The translations under genes and the position numbers were made by a program. Under the pieces are notes generated by a model, which ran no database searches, was not told where the DNA came from, and saw only the letters and a program-made list of their open reading frames with translations. From a virus, in the IMG/VR virus record IMGVR_UViG_3300025168_000054, positions 15,959-79,958 of that record: DNA of 64,000 nt, one strand, 5' to 3'. Shown here piece by piece: positions 30,438 to 62,667 of the stretch. Each line of letters begins with the position of its first letter. Position 1 is the stretch's first letter.

Positions 30438-30736
30438 CACTCTTCCCACCCGATGTAGCGGAACGTCGGCGTGTTCTGCCCCATCCAAGCTCCGCTGGTG
30501 TTGAACGAAAACCACTCAGCGGCGTCCGAATAGCTGCATTCTCCGTCCTCCATGATGGCTTCAACGCACATCTCAGCGTCGTAAACGGCCACTACGAACC
30601 CAGGCTCTCTCGGCCAGTGGTCCTCAGGGGTGTCGGTCATGCCCACAATGCAGGGGTCATAGACGCTGCGTGGTTCGAGCAGCAGCGCGTCAGGGTTGTA
30701 GTTGGCCAGGGCTTCGAGGATCTCTTCGTAGGTCAT
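30437..30736 (-). CDS. Conserved phage hypothetical protein
   Basis: VAVYD...AAEWFSFNTSGAWMGQNTP motif, familiar from aquatic phages. Confidence 0.75.
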   Translation of the reverse strand: MTYEEILEALANYNPDALLLEPRSVYDPCIVGMTDTPEDHWPREPGFVVAVYDAEMCVEAIMEDGECSYSDAAEWFSFNTSGAWMGQNTPTFRYIGWEE

Positions 30737-31203
30737 TCCTCACCACCTTCGTCGCGGACGATGATGCGGCCCCACACCTTGTAGTCGTCACCTGGTACAC
30801 GAGCGACGCCCTTGACCTTGTGGTACTCGTCAGCGCGGGTGTCCCAGACCCAGGCGATCTTACCCTCGCGGACGAACCCGTCGATCATCTCAAAGGTCGG
30901 TCGACCGCAGGTTGTGTCCATTACACCGACGTACTGCCCTGGTCGGATGATCCCGTGGAAACGAGGGGTGCCGTCCCACAGGCGGCCAGCCACCACAGAG
31001 TTCGGCCACGCCTTCCAACCGCCGGCATTCGCAGCGCGGCTCCTGTAGTCGTCGCGGCCTGCGACCACCGTGATGGCATGCTCAGGGTACGCCTCACTCA
31101 ATCCTTCGGTCAGACTGTCACGCCACTTGTCGACAGTCTGGTCTCCGTCCAACCGGTCGTGTGCCAGGAAGAACCTGTAGTCTTCGTCTTTCGTCTCTGT
31201 CAT
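30733..31203 (-). CDS. Hypothetical protein
   Basis: RBS AAGGAG before ATG 31203; ATGA overlap downstream. Confidence 0.75.
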   Translation of the reverse strand: MTETKDEDYRFFLAHDRLDGDQTVDKWRDSLTEGLSEAYPEHAITVVAGRDDYRSRAANAGGWKAWPNSVVAGRLWDGTPRFHGIIRPGQYVGVMDTTCGRPTFEMIDGFVREGKIAWVWDTRADEYHKVKGVARVPGDDYKVWGRIIVRDEGGEE

Positions 31204-31263
31204 ACCACTCTCCTTTGTGTAACAGTGTAGTAAGCCGTTCCGTGCCTTTGTCAAACAGTTGTA

Positions 31264-34086
31264 TCACACTTCTACCCAGGTGCGGCCCACGTCCGCCTCA
31301 CAGGTAAACGTCACCGGCCAACCCGGTACGTCGATCGTCATGCACTCCGTCATCTTCTTCTGCGCCCACTCCGCCAAGTGCTCAGGCACCTCGACGATGA
31401 GTGAGTCATGGACTTGCGCGGTCAAGCCTGTGCCTGGTCCCCACTGCTGAAAGGGGAACGCCTCCAGCACGCGCTGCTCGGCGATGGCCATGACGGCGGC
31501 TTCGCACGCGAGGATGGGAAAGTTGACGACCTCGTTTTTCTTGCCGTCCTGCAAGCCTCCGCTTCGTCGACCGAACAGGGGGTCTTCCATGTAGCCCTGC
31601 TTGTCGTAGAGCATGAGCATGTCTTGCCAAGCCATCATCCAGTCGGTCTCGGCGTCGTGCCAGACCCGGTCGAAGAACCGAACCTGGTTGAGGTCGAACT
31701 GAAGGTACGGCAGGTCGGTGTGTAGATACTCGCTGCCGTCCTTGCGCTGCCGAAAGCCCGTGAGCTCGGTCGAACGAATCACGGAGTGCTTGGTCTCAGC
31801 AGAGGCCCAGTAGATCGACGCATAACGGTACGTCTTGGTCAGCTCTCGAAGCTGGCCCGCCTTGCCTTTCTTGCTTGGCTTATGCGTGGCCTTCAAGCTG
31901 AAGCCCTTTGTCCAACCTGAAGCCTGTTCAAAGTCTTTGCCGAACAAGTCGTGCGCCAACCAGCAGTGCGGGTCGAGGTCATCAGCGAAGCAGTCGAGCA
32001 GTCGTTGGATGCCCCAGTAGTTGGCGGTAATGACCAAGTGCGCCGCACTGAGGTCGCAACCCACCAGCACGTGGCCCGGCGCTGCGCAATACAACGACCT
32101 CACGCCACCCAGGTCTTTGCGGCTGGATTGGTTCTGCATGTTGGGTCCGCTCGACGAGAGGCGCCCAACAGCGGTCGTGTGACTGTTCCACGAGGAACGC
32201 ACGCGCCCGTCGGGATGTAGTGACCCGCCGTCCTTCAGGGGGCGTAGGCCATACAGCTGCGTACCCAACACCTTGGTCCTGACCCGTCGATACTGGCGCA
32301 AGGTCAGAAGGAACTGCCGCTGCTTCTTGTTGATGTCAGGGCTGGCCATGTGAGACCGCAGCACCGCATCACCTGTACCCGGCAGACCAGACTCGGTGTA
32401 GAAGTCTTTGGCGTCCATGCCGTAGGGGATGCCCAGGTCCCACCGCTCATACAGCAGGTCACGGACCTGGTCGAACGAGCCCGGATTGAAGTCCTGGTTC
32501 GCCTTGCGCTTCGCCCCCACTGCTTCGGCAAGACCTTGAAGCTGGTCGTAGAGGTCTACGGCGACCTTCTCAAACCGGTCGGTCAGCAGCGACGCCTTCT
32601 TCTGGTCGACGTAGATGCCGTTCTGGTGCATCTGCACACACATGTCCTGTCGCGCATGGTCGAGGTTCCGCAGGTCCCAGGGACGGGCAGAGGGCCAGCT
32701 GACCGGCTTCGCCCACTCGGGCAACGGCTTGTCTGCTCCGTTGGCGTTGGCGGATCTACGCAGCGGCTCTGTGATGCGAGCGTTGACCACGGTGTCGTAC
32801 TCGCAGTACGTCAACCGCTCCTTGTCGAGCACCTTCCCGCCGCTGTTCTTCTCACCGCTCTCGCTGGTCTCCCACTTGTGTACGTCAGTCAGCCGACGAC
32901 CAGTGGGCTTGAGACCTTTGGGCAGGTCAGGGTGGGTGAAGCGAGCATCGAACAGTGTGTCGTGAGTCGGTTGCGGATTGACCCCGAGCCAGTGCTCAGA
33001 GACTTGGCGATCGAAGTACCCCGCGTTGTGCCCCACCTTGGTCTTGCTGGTGTTCGTGAAGAACTCCCGCAGCACTTCCTTGATGGCCTCCTCCCCGCTC
33101 GGCGAGTAGTAGCGCCGACCCGGCGAGTCTGTGCCCATGATGTTGATACCGACGCTACGTGCCAGCTGGAAGGGCTCCTCCCAGGGCATCGTTGGATTCC
33201 CGTGCCTGTCCAGGTCAGGAGTTGCAATGGCCAAGCACCGCACACCGATGTCGCGGACGTTGATACCGTCGGTCTCGTAGTCGTAGACCCAGAAGGGTGA
33301 GGGGACTGCCAGCCATTCTCGGAGCTCGTGCGCGGTCGGCTGCTCTGATAGTTCGGGCTCAAGCCACCGAAGTACGTTGTTGAACCAGCGGAAAGCCTTA
33401 CCCAGCGTGGCGTAGAACTGCGGGCGTAACTTCGGAGAGTGCTTGACATAGCCAGGGTCGTAAGTTGAAACGACTTTAACTTTCCAATCATTGCTCGACT
33501 GAGTCCAGTCGTAGGCTTGCCAGGTCAAACGGCTGACCTTGACTTCTCGCATGTCGCCCTCGAGATGGGACATGCTTGAGGTGGTGTCGAGCACGCGCTG
33601 CGCTGCCGTACTGCCCAGCGGGAGGATGTATCCGTAGGCTGAGAGGTGAGATTGCAGGTAGGGGGCGCAGCAGTCAGCCGGGTGAGGTAGCGCTTCTTCG
33701 ACCTGACGCTTTGCCTCGGCCGCGGACGTGCCTTCCTTACGCAGCTTCTTCGTCAGTGCTTTACGCCGACGGCGTAGTTGCGCCTCCATCTTCTTCCACC
33801 CGTCTCTCGGAGCGCAGGCCGTCACGAAGAACAAGTCGATCATCGACCTGTTCAGCCCCGTGGCTCTCAAAGCACGGTCCCACTCGGCACCGTCCAGCCC
33901 GCTCAAGGGGCGGCTGTGCCTCACGTCTTCGCGCTTGGGCGCTTCAAGCACGGCAGCGACTGTCGTGCTCTCGTGTATCTCGGGGGGCACAGGCTCCCAC
34001 CCGTCTCCGACGAGACAGCCGCCCGGCCCCATGGGGCACTGATTGCACTTGGCGCCCCTCTTTCGGGGGTCGAATCGACTACTCAT
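31264..34086 (-). CDS. polA: Family A DNA polymerase with N-terminal UDG-family-4-like domain and 3'-5' exonuclease
   Basis: Exo motifs DYETDG, HNAGYFD, YCEYD; GRLSSSGPNMQN; motif A CDLS, motif B R...K...Y...Y, motif C VHD; N-terminal CxxC/EAP/RP..G UDG-like motifs. Confidence 0.92.
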   Translation of the reverse strand: MSSRFDPRKRGAKCNQCPMGPGGCLVGDGWEPVPPEIHESTTVAAVLEAPKREDVRHSRPLSGLDGAEWDRALRATGLNRSMIDLFFVTACAPRDGWKKMEAQLRRRRKALTKKLRKEGTSAAEAKRQVEEALPHPADCCAPYLQSHLSAYGYILPLGSTAAQRVLDTTSSMSHLEGDMREVKVSRLTWQAYDWTQSSNDWKVKVVSTYDPGYVKHSPKLRPQFYATLGKAFRWFNNVLRWLEPELSEQPTAHELREWLAVPSPFWVYDYETDGINVRDIGVRCLAIATPDLDRHGNPTMPWEEPFQLARSVGINIMGTDSPGRRYYSPSGEEAIKEVLREFFTNTSKTKVGHNAGYFDRQVSEHWLGVNPQPTHDTLFDARFTHPDLPKGLKPTGRRLTDVHKWETSESGEKNSGGKVLDKERLTYCEYDTVVNARITEPLRRSANANGADKPLPEWAKPVSWPSARPWDLRNLDHARQDMCVQMHQNGIYVDQKKASLLTDRFEKVAVDLYDQLQGLAEAVGAKRKANQDFNPGSFDQVRDLLYERWDLGIPYGMDAKDFYTESGLPGTGDAVLRSHMASPDINKKQRQFLLTLRQYRRVRTKVLGTQLYGLRPLKDGGSLHPDGRVRSSWNSHTTAVGRLSSSGPNMQNQSSRKDLGGVRSLYCAAPGHVLVGCDLSAAHLVITANYWGIQRLLDCFADDLDPHCWLAHDLFGKDFEQASGWTKGFSLKATHKPSKKGKAGQLRELTKTYRYASIYWASAETKHSVIRSTELTGFRQRKDGSEYLHTDLPYLQFDLNQVRFFDRVWHDAETDWMMAWQDMLMLYDKQGYMEDPLFGRRSGGLQDGKKNEVVNFPILACEAAVMAIAEQRVLEAFPFQQWGPGTGLTAQVHDSLIVEVPEHLAEWAQKKMTECMTIDVPGWPVTFTCEADVGRTWVEV

Positions 34087-36524: not shown

Positions 36525-36932
36525 TTATTCGTCAATCTCCCAGTGATGCTGGGTACCGGGCTCATGGCATCGGCGGATATTACGAACGCTGCCCCCCGTC
36601 AGACCCAGCTTTTCGCTCAGGAAATCAACAACTTGTTTGACATTGAACTCCTTGCAGGAGAACAAGTCGAAGCTCACATGTCCTCGCAGAGGCCACGTAT
36701 GAATACTTCCGTGCGACGTGGTCAGGATTACAGTGCCCGTGACTCCTCCGTCGTCCTCGCCGTTCTCGACCATAGGGTCAAGCGGCACGGCGACCATTTC
36801 CGCAGGCTTCAGAATCTGCATACCTACCATCTCGACCAGTTCGTTGAGCACCGCACCGATCAACTCAGGGTCGTTGAGGCGCTGCGACTCTTGGGTCCAG
36901 GCGTCAATGATTACGTGTCTACCTGTTTTCAT
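36525..36932 (-). CDS. speD: Pyruvoyl-dependent AdoMet decarboxylase (SpeD) homologue; substrate uncertain
   Basis: GRHVIID, GGVTGTVILTT-SHGSIHTWP self-cleavage motif, DLFSCK. Confidence 0.88.
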   Translation of the reverse strand: MKTGRHVIIDAWTQESQRLNDPELIGAVLNELVEMVGMQILKPAEMVAVPLDPMVENGEDDGGVTGTVILTTSHGSIHTWPLRGHVSFDLFSCKEFNVKQVVDFLSEKLGLTGGSVRNIRRCHEPGTQHHWEIDE

Positions 36933-36937
36933 GATGA

Positions 36938-37918
36938 TTACTCCGGGCCGTACTGGCATAGTTCAAACGCGCCGCACTTACCGTAGCGGTGGTAGCAAAC
37001 GAGCTCGCTCTGAGCCATTTGCCAGTCCCCCTCGGTCACGTACGCTCTCTTGTGGTTGACGAGCTGGTTGCCCAGCGACATCGCCCTCGAGTAAATCTGC
37101 CGAGCCAACTGTTCGTCACGCCAAGGTGTGGCGGGTACGTGCTGACGACTCACGGTCCAGGGGCTGCGCCGCTGCACCAAGTTCAAGATGACCCCTCCGA
37201 AGTCCTCGTACAACTGCTGGCCCATGATGCGGTTGACGGCGAACTGGCCGTCCATGGCGTACTGCTGAGCACGAGTCTTGCTCACACTCCCGCCGGTCAC
37301 CTTGTGATCCCAGATGTACGTTCGCCCGTCGGAGCTATGCTTCATCACGAGGTCGAACCGCTTGGTCAATTCGATGGGCTTGCCGTGCTGCAGCGCCGGA
37401 ACGCCACGAACAGGCTCCTCAAGCCCAGGGCAATCCAGCAACGTAGGCTCTGAGAGATTCTTGTCGAGCCATAGGCCGAAGTCTCCTTCGTGGTTGTGCC
37501 CCAAGGTCAGCTTGACCTGGTTCTCGACAGACACCACACGGTCAGAGACATAGGGCTCCTTCTGAAGATATCGACGGAAGACATCAAGCGTCGTGCCGAT
37601 GTAGGGGTGAGCGTCTACGCCTTCGAGCTCTCGCCGACGCACCCACTCACGAACTGCCGCATCGGGAGGTAGGAAGTGGTCAGGGTCTGTGACGTGCTGG
37701 CCTTCGTACTCGAAGCCTCCCTGCTCGCAGCCCTTCTGAGCGTAGTAGTGAGCGAGCACGGTGTGGCCCATTGACCCCAGTGTCAGCGCCTCGGCGTTGA
37801 TGAACTCACGCTGCTTGACGTTAATGATGAACCATAATCGGTCACACTTAAAGGCTGGTCCCCAGAAGGACCAGCCTGTTGTGCTTCGACCGGTGTCGAT
37901 GAGGATGGGCTCAGGCAT
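36938..37918 (-). CDS. Cas4/RecB-like PD-(D/E)XK exonuclease with Fe-S cysteines
   Basis: KCDR...GSMGH...RFDLV...IWDHK...Q...C.....KC....LC. Confidence 0.8.
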   Translation of the reverse strand: MPEPILIDTGRSTTGWSFWGPAFKCDRLWFIINVKQREFINAEALTLGSMGHTVLAHYYAQKGCEQGGFEYEGQHVTDPDHFLPPDAAVREWVRRRELEGVDAHPYIGTTLDVFRRYLQKEPYVSDRVVSVENQVKLTLGHNHEGDFGLWLDKNLSEPTLLDCPGLEEPVRGVPALQHGKPIELTKRFDLVMKHSSDGRTYIWDHKVTGGSVSKTRAQQYAMDGQFAVNRIMGQQLYEDFGGVILNLVQRRSPWTVSRQHVPATPWRDEQLARQIYSRAMSLGNQLVNHKRAYVTEGDWQMAQSELVCYHRYGKCGAFELCQYGPE

Positions 37919-60583: not shown

Positions 60584-61558
60584 TCAGTCTCCCAGCAGGT
60601 AAGCCCAGATTAGCGGCGCAACAATGGTGGCGTCTGACTCGATCATAAACTTCGGGGTGTCGACATCGAGTTTGCCCCAAGTGATTTTCTCGTTGGGTGG
60701 CGCTCCTGAGTATCCGCCGTAGCTGGTCACAGCGTCACTGATCTGGCAAAAGTATCCCCAGAAGGGCGTCGATGTCTCTTTGAGGTCTTGAATCAATGCG
60801 GGCACAGCGCAGATGGCGAAGTCTCCTGCAATCCCGCCACCAATCTGAAAGAAACCAACGCTCGGAGTACCGTTGAGATCTTTGGTCTGCTGCTGGTACC
60901 ACTCTATCAAGCGAACCATCTGCTCTGTGCCTGAGACCACAGACGTATGACTCTGTAGGTTTCCTTTGAGTGCAGCGACAGCGAACATGTTGCCGCAGGT
61001 GCTGTCCTCCCACCCCGGCGTAAACACAGGGACACCGCAGCGTGACGCAGCGAGCAGCCAGCTGTCTTCAGCCTGTTGGAAGTGACGCTGCACTTCGGGT
61101 AGTGCCAGCACACTCTGAAGATGTTCCGCGGGAAGGGCTGAGCGTCCCTCTTGGTCGAATGCTTGCCAGCGTGCCAGAAGTTTTTCTGCCAAGCGGCGCA
61201 TCACTGTCTCGGGAATGCACGTGTCTGTCACGCGGTTCATGCCCTGCTCGTAAAAAGCACGGTCTTGTTCAGCCGACAGTGCTCTCCAGTTTTCGATCTC
61301 AACGTACGTGTCTCCCTCCAAGAGAGCGTAGGCATCTTCCTCTAAGTTCGCTCCCGTGCAGCAGATTCCATGCACTAAACCAGCGTCGAGCGCGCGCGAT
61401 AAGATTCGACCAATCCGAGCAGTGGACATCGCTCCGGCCAATGTCACAAACATCTTTCCGCCCGCTGTGATGTGGGCTTCGTAGGCTCGTGCAGCTGCTC
61501 GAACTTGTCGAGCGTTGTAGTGTAGATAGTGTTGGTCGACAAAGTCGCGTACTCTCAT
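60584..61558 (-). CDS. Deoxyhypusine synthase-like protein (bacterial type, SpeY/homospermidine-synthesis candidate)
   Basis: TLAGAMST, TGANLEED, NRVTD, PGWEDS, IGGG, YSGAPPNEKITWGK with the catalytic Lys, ESDATI. Confidence 0.92.
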   Translation of the reverse strand: MRVRDFVDQHYLHYNARQVRAAARAYEAHITAGGKMFVTLAGAMSTARIGRILSRALDAGLVHGICCTGANLEEDAYALLEGDTYVEIENWRALSAEQDRAFYEQGMNRVTDTCIPETVMRRLAEKLLARWQAFDQEGRSALPAEHLQSVLALPEVQRHFQQAEDSWLLAASRCGVPVFTPGWEDSTCGNMFAVAALKGNLQSHTSVVSGTEQMVRLIEWYQQQTKDLNGTPSVGFFQIGGGIAGDFAICAVPALIQDLKETSTPFWGYFCQISDAVTSYGGYSGAPPNEKITWGKLDVDTPKFMIESDATIVAPLIWAYLLGD

Positions 61559-61671: not shown

Positions 61672-62667
61672 ATGCAAGATTTCGATCCGAACAACGCTGC
61701 GTCTACAGAAGGTCTGTTTGGACTGTCAGACGAGCAGCCTGCGCTTGTGCGGGTGCTCCCTGTGCCTATTGACGCAACCGCGAGTTTTATGCGTGGAACG
61801 GCTGACAGTTGGAAGTACATCTTGCGCGCAAGTCATCAGGTTGATCTCTTTCATCCTCACGTTGAGTCTCCGTGGCGAGAAGGCATCGTGTTGGAAGATG
61901 TGCCGTCGAACCTTCGACAGCTAAACACAGAGGCGTGTGCGTTGGTCGCTGCGGCGAGATCCGGCGCAGCTTGCACCGACGAGGTCAACAAGATCGGGGA
62001 GACGGTTGCCGACGAAACTGAAAGGTTTGTCTCTGCAGCCTTTCAACGCAATGAAATACCTGCCATCTTGGGCGGTGACCACTCAGTGCCCTTCGGCGCT
62101 CACAAGGCTGCTGTCGCTCAGTTCGCTGAGCTGGGTGTCCTTCATATCGACGCACATGCAGACCTGAGACCGGCCTATGAAGGCTTCACGCACAGCCATG
62201 CGTCCATCTTTCACAACACCCTGAGTTTGGGAATCTCATCTCTCGCACAGGTCGGGATTCGAGACCTGTGTGAACTCGAAGCCCAGCGACAGCGCAACGA
62301 TCCAAGGATTCATACTCTGACTGATTTTGATATTGCCGACACCAAAGCACGTGGCGCAGACCTTAAAGAGCGTTTCGTAGACCTGGTAAAAACACTGCCT
62401 GAGTCTGTGTGGGTCTCGGTCGATATCGACGGACTTGATCCCTCGCTATGTCCCAATACCGGTACGCCAGTACCCGGTGGACTAAGCTGGCGTGAGTTCC
62501 GTGTTTTGATGCAGGCATTGGGGGAGTCAGACAAAAATATCGTAGGGTTCGATCTTTGCGAGGTTGGGCCTCATCCGTGGGACGCTAATGTCGGCGCACG
62601 GGTCTTGTTCGAACTGTGGTGTTGGAGTGTGAGCTCTTATCGAAGACGCTCGCAAAACCACGCATGA
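61672..62667 (+). CDS. speB: Agmatinase (ureohydrolase family)
   Basis: GGDHS, HIDAHAD, SHAS, GIRD, SVDIDGLDP, TGTPVPGG; Mn ligands intact. Confidence 0.92.
   Translation: MQDFDPNNAASTEGLFGLSDEQPALVRVLPVPIDATASFMRGTADSWKYILRASHQVDLFHPHVESPWREGIVLEDVPSNLRQLNTEACALVAAARSGAACTDEVNKIGETVADETERFVSAAFQRNEIPAILGGDHSVPFGAHKAAVAQFAELGVLHIDAHADLRPAYEGFTHSHASIFHNTLSLGISSLAQVGIRDLCELEAQRQRNDPRIHTLTDFDIADTKARGADLKERFVDLVKTLPESVWVSVDIDGLDPSLCPNTGTPVPGGLSWREFRVLMQALGESDKNIVGFDLCEVGPHPWDANVGARVLFELWCWSVSSYRRRSQNHA

Follow-up and report, generated by a model that had tools for sequence, protein, structure and literature searches.

The stretch of DNA analysed here, called the window, comprises 64,000 nucleotides (bases 15,959 to 79,958) of the virus record IMGVR_UViG_3300025168_000054 in IMG/VR, which is 79,958 bp long, has direct terminal repeats and is rated complete. 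The minus strand of the window carries a gene for a protein of 940 amino acids with three parts, an N-terminal domain resembling the family-4 uracil-DNA glycosylases (UDG), a 3′-5′ exonuclease and a family A DNA polymerase (PolA) (Table 1). Pfam search of this open reading frame (ORF) identified DNA_pol_A (3e-30; PF00476 score of 105.7 bits, cut-off 34.3), DNA_pol_A_exo1 (3e-6) and, weakly, UDG (1e-4), and PHROG 17 (DNA polymerase) matched it with 2e-76. The start Met is the same as that of the homologues. In addition, an AlphaFold2 (AF2) model (pLDDT 92.2, pTM 0.89) had Klenow, Bst and Taq as its best Foldseek matches, with TM values of 0.75-0.82 of the target; the E value was ~1e-26 for these three and G20c.

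To assign the active-site residues, the window polymerase was aligned to Taq Pol I using HMMER, which fixed the following Klenow equivalences: D678 = D705, H683 = E710, N855 = N845, L859 = Q849, E862 = A852, and H893-D894 = H881-D882. The hallmark residues of family A, namely D678, H893-D894, R747/K751/Y759, and Arg R642 of the TGR motif, are all in place, and across the family they vary little or not at all. In Klenow numbering, D705, D882, R668, R754, K758, Y766, N845, and H881 are all kept. However, the steric-gate Glu, expected five residues past the motif A Asp, is absent, and His683 is found in its place. This His marks a variant of family A, and the protein stays within family A. Helix Q, which carries L859 and E862, spans residues 850-876 in the AF2 model. 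An earlier note on this DNA had quoted motif A as DLSAAHL, a motif B, and NFPILACEA, and we found all of them as quoted in the one minus-strand ORF.

Furthermore, the DEDDy exonuclease residues (PF01612) are all present (Exo I D269 and E271, Exo II N354 and D359, Exo III Y427 and D431), and five of the six are invariant across the polymerase family. In the UDG-like domain, the four Cys ligands of a 4Fe-4S cluster are kept (C14, C17, C91, and C140, in columns that are either invariant or conserved to at least 90%). Meanwhile, the catalytic UDG motifs are degenerate in the window protein and its close relatives (GEAPG to LEAPK, HPA to DPG). Six-frame searches of the complete 79,958-bp genome found this gene as the only one of PolA, PolB or PolC type, and no family B or C polymerase was found. 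Thus, this enzyme is the replicative polymerase of the phage. Decay or a pseudogene was rejected in view of the intact ORF, the conserved residues and the lack of any other polymerase. The earlier note had likewise argued that the substitutions are not general decay, which agrees with the retained catalytic Asp residues, R754/K758/Y766, N845, H881 and exonuclease residues, and with the model confidence.

Relatives were collected by a phmmer scan of 1.84 billion representatives, which gave 8,654 matches, including 406 with values below 1e-30. The top 150 matches were all UDG-exo-PolA proteins from metagenomes, and the contigs of the closer relatives were 65-74 kb. After alignment to the window polymerase, the relatives were called H-type (His gate) or E-type (Glu gate), and coupling was counted in 143 representatives at 50% identity that cover all sites. 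At positions 683/859/862, 72 of the 143 have His, Leu or Ile, and Glu, and 71 have Glu (one Asp), Gln (one Ser), and a non-acidic residue; none is mixed. When all 940 columns were scanned against the gate state, the mutual information was 1.00 for 683, 859, and 862, 0.96 for 640, and lower elsewhere. Position 640 is V/P/I in H-types and T/S in E-types. The same holds for 112 IMG/VR genes (58 H-type versus 54 E-type, 0 mixed) and for the combined set of 371 sequences (246 versus 125, 0 mixed), and each state is backed by many clusters and contigs. Within the UDG-exo-PolA family, Glu at Klenow position 852 always occurs with the gate His and never with the gate Glu. Two discrete configurations can be described, the canonical one with Thr666, Glu710, Gln849, and a small residue at 852, and the other one with Val (Pro, Ile), His, Leu (Ile), and Glu, which we call V-H-L-E. 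These counts show that, across the sequences sampled, the four positions behave as an epistatically locked unit, changing only together and under strict purifying selection.

The trees were rebuilt without the four trait columns. In the FastTree tree of 144 rows, there were five state changes, four of them forced by supported branches, and the IQ-TREE tree of 58 rows required at least three changes on supported branches. The approximately unbiased (AU) test rejected the best tree in which one branch separates all H-types from the E-types (delta lnL 74.8, p = 0.004), although the H group was defined only once the tree had been seen, which weakens this p value and counts against the reading we develop below. 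Two H-type groups (P0111 and P0077/P0120/P0139) were nested within E-type clades. At the secondary sites associated with the H-type, both groups have retained the E-type residue (696 Y, 710 T, 842 R, and 923 L), and the flanks of each of three sequence patches are likewise of E-type. Large-block recombination was rejected as the source of these groups on these grounds. Because the E-type background is retained, the core four have been switched by parallel change and not by block import. The closest pair of an H-type and an E-type is only 53% identical, and thus the switches are old events. There were only four independent contrasts, too few for significance (sign test, p = 0.125). Taken from the trees, these results show that the V-H-L-E configuration arose at least three separate times by concerted switch and was then strictly conserved. 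In the nested H-types P0077, P0120, and P0139, we also observed that motif C reads N-Y-D-S, with the conserved His881 replaced by Tyr.

The other substitutions of the window polymerase behave differently. F762Y and G763A are the majority state in H- and E-types alike, the G767W position is variable across the family, and N761R is enriched in H-types (49/72) and not fixed. Ser or Ala is found at 883 family-wide, as in the enzyme of the N4-like phage Pa2. The linkage of T666V, E710H, Q849L, and Glu852 is strongly supported by the alignments, and the remaining substitutions are lineage background. The earlier note had proposed that all its listed changes are coordinated. With 0 mixed sequences among 371 and at least three concerted switches, this stands for E710H, Q849L, and Glu852; F762Y and G763A (family-wide) and G767W (variable) fall out of the set, and N761R is only partly linked. 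T666V (V640 in the window protein), one of the linked changes, was missed; it lies ~110 nt outside the range 31400-32060 that had been considered. The motif C change to HDS (E883 to Ser) was also missing from the list.

Within motif A (window 32032-32055), the window polymerase and its nearest relatives have D-L-S-A-A-H-L-V, whereas most of the family has D-x-D-Q-x-H-L-R. This is a second linked change, at the level of a subclade, in which the Asp at the S707 equivalent, Q708, and R712 (Klenow) together become Ser, Ala, and Val. In addition, many family members (P0062, P0090, P0140, P0169, and others) are 1,200-2,030 aa long and align to the window polymerase in 3-5 separate segments, and one long member contains a LAGLIDADG-type Pfam domain. 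This suggests that the long members carry inteins or homing-endonuclease insertions in the polymerase gene.

We take the cluster of R668, E710, Q849, and D882 (Klenow) to adjoin the 3′ end of the primer and the sugar of the nucleotide to be added. Only two residues separate T666 from R668 in numbering, and position 852 is one helical turn past Q849 on helix Q. We consider it fairly probable that the window enzyme is a working replicative polymerase in which this cluster has an alternative locked configuration, with the carboxylate moved from motif A to helix Q. We propose this reading because of three observations: the corresponding residues of Bst (Q797, R615, E658, and D830, equal to Klenow Q849, R668, E710, and D882) are close together with electrostatic interaction (PMC10520511, review), Glu852 and the lost gate Glu go together in the family, and Glu852 also accompanies a lost gate Glu in two PolA lineages unrelated to the window family. 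The buried carboxylate would have moved one turn further along helix Q to Glu862, which would be the negative partner of His683, Arg642 or both. Leu859 (849) would free space for Glu862, and Val640 (666) would stand in for a Thr whose hydrogen-bond partner is gone. Meanwhile, the imidazole ring of His683 may now pack against C2′ of the sugar in the incoming nucleotide, and the enzyme would still copy ordinary DNA from deoxynucleoside triphosphates (dNTPs).

Several further points weigh against this relocation of the carboxylate. The putative His-Glu or Arg-Glu contact rests on covariation and the statement on Bst, not on a structure of the window enzyme. Each concerted switch needs at least six nucleotide changes and has left no surviving intermediates; that such switches are repeated therefore argues for selection rather than mere tolerance, and the two configurations may differ in function. 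Furthermore, Gln849 is a minor-groove reader, and its loss impairs Klenow (PMC10520511). A hydrophobic residue at 849 could change mismatch sensing rather than be neutral.

The best surviving alternative, which we nevertheless consider unlikely, is an adaptive specificity switch. V-H-L-E would then alter the acceptance or rejection of ribo- or 2′/3′-altered nucleotides, chain terminators, mismatch extension or fidelity, and lineages would flip under selection from the host nucleotide pool or defence. The residues involved are indeed the steric gate and, of the two residues that read the minor groove at the terminal base pair, one; no intermediate occurs among the 371 sequences, and at least three independent concerted switches on differing backgrounds, each strictly conserved, are hard to get by drift. 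However, the neighbourhoods of H- and E-type genes differ only in lineage markers, the bulk of His equals that of Glu, so that lost sugar discrimination is not predicted, and the age of the switches does not fit rapid toggling. A bolder form of this idea is more doubtful still, namely that V-H-L-E is a repeatedly selected nucleotide-selectivity switch, in which the sugars, chain terminators or minor-groove shapes accepted differ from those of the Glu-gate sisters and the four residues flip together with host pools or nucleotide-based defences. If true, it would be a natural and transplantable cassette to re-tune family A polymerases.

Adaptation to non-canonical DNA, with the pocket rebuilt for a genome of modified base or sugar or for a modified dNTP, appears very unlikely. 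UDG-PolA fusions of the SPO1 and SP15 types do accompany thymidine-modified genomes (PMC13697223; PMC10201439). In addition, a Dam-family methylase is encoded two genes from the polymerase, the phage has three polyamine-pathway genes (Table 1), and an uncharacterised ORF weakly resembling nucleoside 2′-deoxyribosyltransferases (NDT) or TIR domains lies directly downstream. However, six-frame searches of the complete genome found no homologue of ThyA or ThyX (the route to 5-hydroxymethyl pyrimidines), PurZ or TGT/DpdA, and the UDG-like domain is without GEAPG and HPA. What the changed residues read is the minor groove and the sugar, but most known base modifications of phages lie in the major groove, where N6-methyladenine also sits, away from these residues. 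Furthermore, we found no nucleotide-modification or nucleotide-metabolism gene tied to the H-type in 95 de-duplicated IMG/VR neighbourhoods. The genes associated with H-types in these 95 loci were lineage markers, including a DUF927 primase-helicase (23 H, 0 E), a helix-turn-helix (HTH) protein, an NrdR-like zinc ribbon, and small unknown ORFs; core replication genes and the Dam methylase were found beside both types, as was the downstream ORF (53 of the 95 loci, 38 H and 15 E). The V-H-L-E configuration is not by itself a sign of unusual DNA. The suggestion of the earlier note that sugar or base selectivity is altered, or that a modified template is handled, is thus left without evidence.

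Least probable of all, by a little, is that the apparent independent switches are an artefact of tree error, recombination or chimeric assemblies and that V-H-L-E is a lineage marker from one ancient event without special coupling: phage polymerase genes do recombine, the FastTree and quick IQ-TREE searches were not exhaustive, the outgroup branch is long and the contrasts are only four, but a single split is rejected by the AU test, the E-type residues flanking the patches in nested H-types would need three short patch conversions per event, the same Glu852 rule is found in two unrelated PolA families, and both states are represented by many clusters and contigs.

The comparison with known polymerases indicates that the window enzyme is from a large uncultured clade, which, judged by sequence, is distantly related to the N4-like UDG-PolAs. 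This nearest named group is cluster #17 (PMC10201439) and includes Pseudomonas phage Pa2, the best N4-like match (~24% identity over 55% of the query). The N4-like enzymes and the window enzyme share a catalytically lost N-terminal family-4 UDG-like domain followed by an active exonuclease and PolA (activity predicted for the window enzyme), a motif C without the second acid (HDA in Pa2, HDS in the window), and a genome of ~70-80 kb with terminal repeats in which the enzyme is the sole replicative polymerase. However, the N4-like enzymes have Phe at motif B position B3 (762), where the window enzyme has Tyr755, and their gate is canonical; in Pa2, Glu occupies the gate in place of His, and a Ser/Thr of TGR type is found in place of Val. 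The four-residue V-H-L-E set has not been reported for cluster #17.

The SPO1- and SP15-like UDG-PolAs (YerA41 and phiLo; Missoury et al. 2026, PMC13697223) have the same UDG-exo-PolA architecture. Like them, many members of the wider window family, mostly E-types, keep the GEAPG and HP motifs of the UDG domain; the intact pair occurs in 39/73 E-types versus 7/169 H-types. However, the UDG of the SPO1- and SP15-like enzymes is active, and the SP15-like ones also have two large inserts and a C-terminal domain, whereas the window enzyme of 940 aa has neither large inserts nor this C-terminal domain and has lost the UDG motifs. They also keep the canonical E710-type gate where the window enzyme has His. 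Moreover, the phages that carry them are thymidine-hypermodified (with a 5-hydroxymethyl-dUTP pathway in the SP15-like ones), whereas the window genome has no ThyA or ThyX homologue. The structures of Klenow, Bst, and Taq (1kfs, 4b9s, 3po4, and others) are the best structural matches at 17-19% identity, and the window enzyme differs from them by T666V, E710H, Q849L, A852E, E883S, and the extra UDG-like domain.

Two other polymerases share parts of the pocket. The divPolA1 of Flavobacterium phage immuto_3-5A has a His gate, and its helix Q (N..MQSLE) has Glu at 852 as in the window enzyme. However, divPolA1 is a second, miniature polymerase whose exonuclease is inactivated and whose thumb is truncated. 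It has retained Gln849 and, in its TSR motif, the Thr, and it is otherwise unrelated in sequence. It was described without discussion of the gate (Yutin et al., PMC11348598). Meanwhile, the polymerase of Leptolyngbya phage Lbo-JY12 and cyanophage PP (Wumptrevirus) has also lost the gate Glu and has Glu at 852; its gate is Gln, its helix Q reads N..QGFE in Lbo-JY12, and Gln849 is kept. In contrast to the window enzyme, it has no UDG domain and is a 624-aa enzyme of a T7-like podovirus.

A previous study listed the steric gate, position A2, as highly conserved in the motifs of all 19 PolA clusters (Czernecki et al. 2023, PMC10201439) and noted a substituted TGR Thr in one cluster only. As to whether the substitutions are common in ordinary phage PolA, which would have spoken against a special pocket, we found them to be common within a single large uncultured clade and not in the classical PolA subfamilies, for which conservation of both A2 and the TGR Thr has been reported (PMC10201439). 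The alignment that the earlier note had proposed indicates that the V-H-L-E set characterises a large group within the UDG-exo-PolA family and arose several times. Full-text literature search found no published description of the V-H-L-E configuration or of a His gate in UDG-PolAs, and the INPHARED phage records, from which entries close to the window may have been excluded, contained no relative above ~25% identity. The V-H-L-E enzymes are a variant form of a known kind of polymerase and are widespread in uncultured phages.

The steric-gate Glu and Gln849 are textbook examples of fixed residues in Pol I-type enzymes, and they are prime engineering targets for the synthesis of RNA, xeno nucleic acids (XNA), and modified nucleotides. 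A natural clade with both residues replaced, in at least 72 clusters at 50% identity, indicates that the pocket has a second stable solution. Its several origins, always as a locked set of four, name the exact residues that should be changed together. In addition, the rule that a lost gate Glu is accompanied by Glu at 852 helps to interpret other phage polymerases that look broken.

Table 1. Positions in the window of the polymerase gene, its domains and motifs, and other genes mentioned in the text
Feature	Position	Strand	Basis or remark
Gene of UDG-like / 3′-5′ exonuclease / family A polymerase, 940 aa	31264..34086	-	ATG at 34086, TGA at 31264-31266; ORF and translation
N-terminal family-4 UDG-like domain, ~residues 1-245	33352..34086	-	Weak Pfam UDG match; Cys columns; motif comparison with relatives
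3′-5′ exonuclease domain	32737..33303	-	Exo I/II/III intact; Pfam and alignment
Polymerase domain (thumb, palm, fingers)	31267..32679	-	PF00476; Taq/Klenow alignment; AF2 model
Thr position of TGR motif, V640 (Klenow T666)	32167..32169	-	Codon GTT; V/P/I in H-type, T/S in E-type
Motif A, D678-L-S-A-A-H683-L	32035..32055	-	H683 at 32038-32040 replaces steric-gate Glu (Klenow E710)
Motif B (O helix), R747...K751..R754-Y755-A756..Y759-W760	31807..31848	-	Klenow R, K, and Y766 canonical
Helix Q, N855-F-P-I-L859-A-C-E862	31501..31524	-	N845 kept; Q849 to Leu; new Glu at Klenow 852
Motif C, H893-D894-S895...E899	31390..31410 (HDS core 31402-31410)	-	HDS for HDE, family-wide
ORF directly downstream of the polymerase gene	30736-31254	-	~140-175 aa; likely true start at an internal Met before FLAH
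SpeD-like pyruvoyl decarboxylase	36528-36959	-	PHROG 3125, 3e-20
Deoxyhypusine/homospermidine-synthase-like gene	60587-61558	-	Pfam DS, 7e-39
Agmatinase/arginase-family gene	61672-62664	+	1e-47
Uninterrupted ORF of 4861 aa	10124-24709	+	Structural module; no Pfam family at E <= 0.01

The polymerase gene sits in a minus-strand replication module with the DUF927 primase-helicase, an SbcC-like ATPase, the Dam-family methylase, and the HTH protein. The same module also holds an AAA_24 ATPase, a PD-(D/E)XK nuclease, a SNF2 helicase, and a primase-like protein. The ORF directly downstream of the polymerase has the conserved motifs FLAH, GRDD, GGW..W, FHG, and VGKAT. It matched no Pfam or PHROG family, and Foldseek gave no match at E <= 0.001. 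Its AF2 model (pLDDT 87) shows an alpha/beta fold, for which VIA gave no more than weak matches (Z ~6), namely to SEFIR/TIR and nucleoside 2′-deoxyribosyltransferase domains. In the structural module, two ORFs of 736 aa and one of 940 aa lie upstream of the ORF of 4861 aa, and a PHROG of internal virion proteins was a weak match for one of the two 736-aa proteins.

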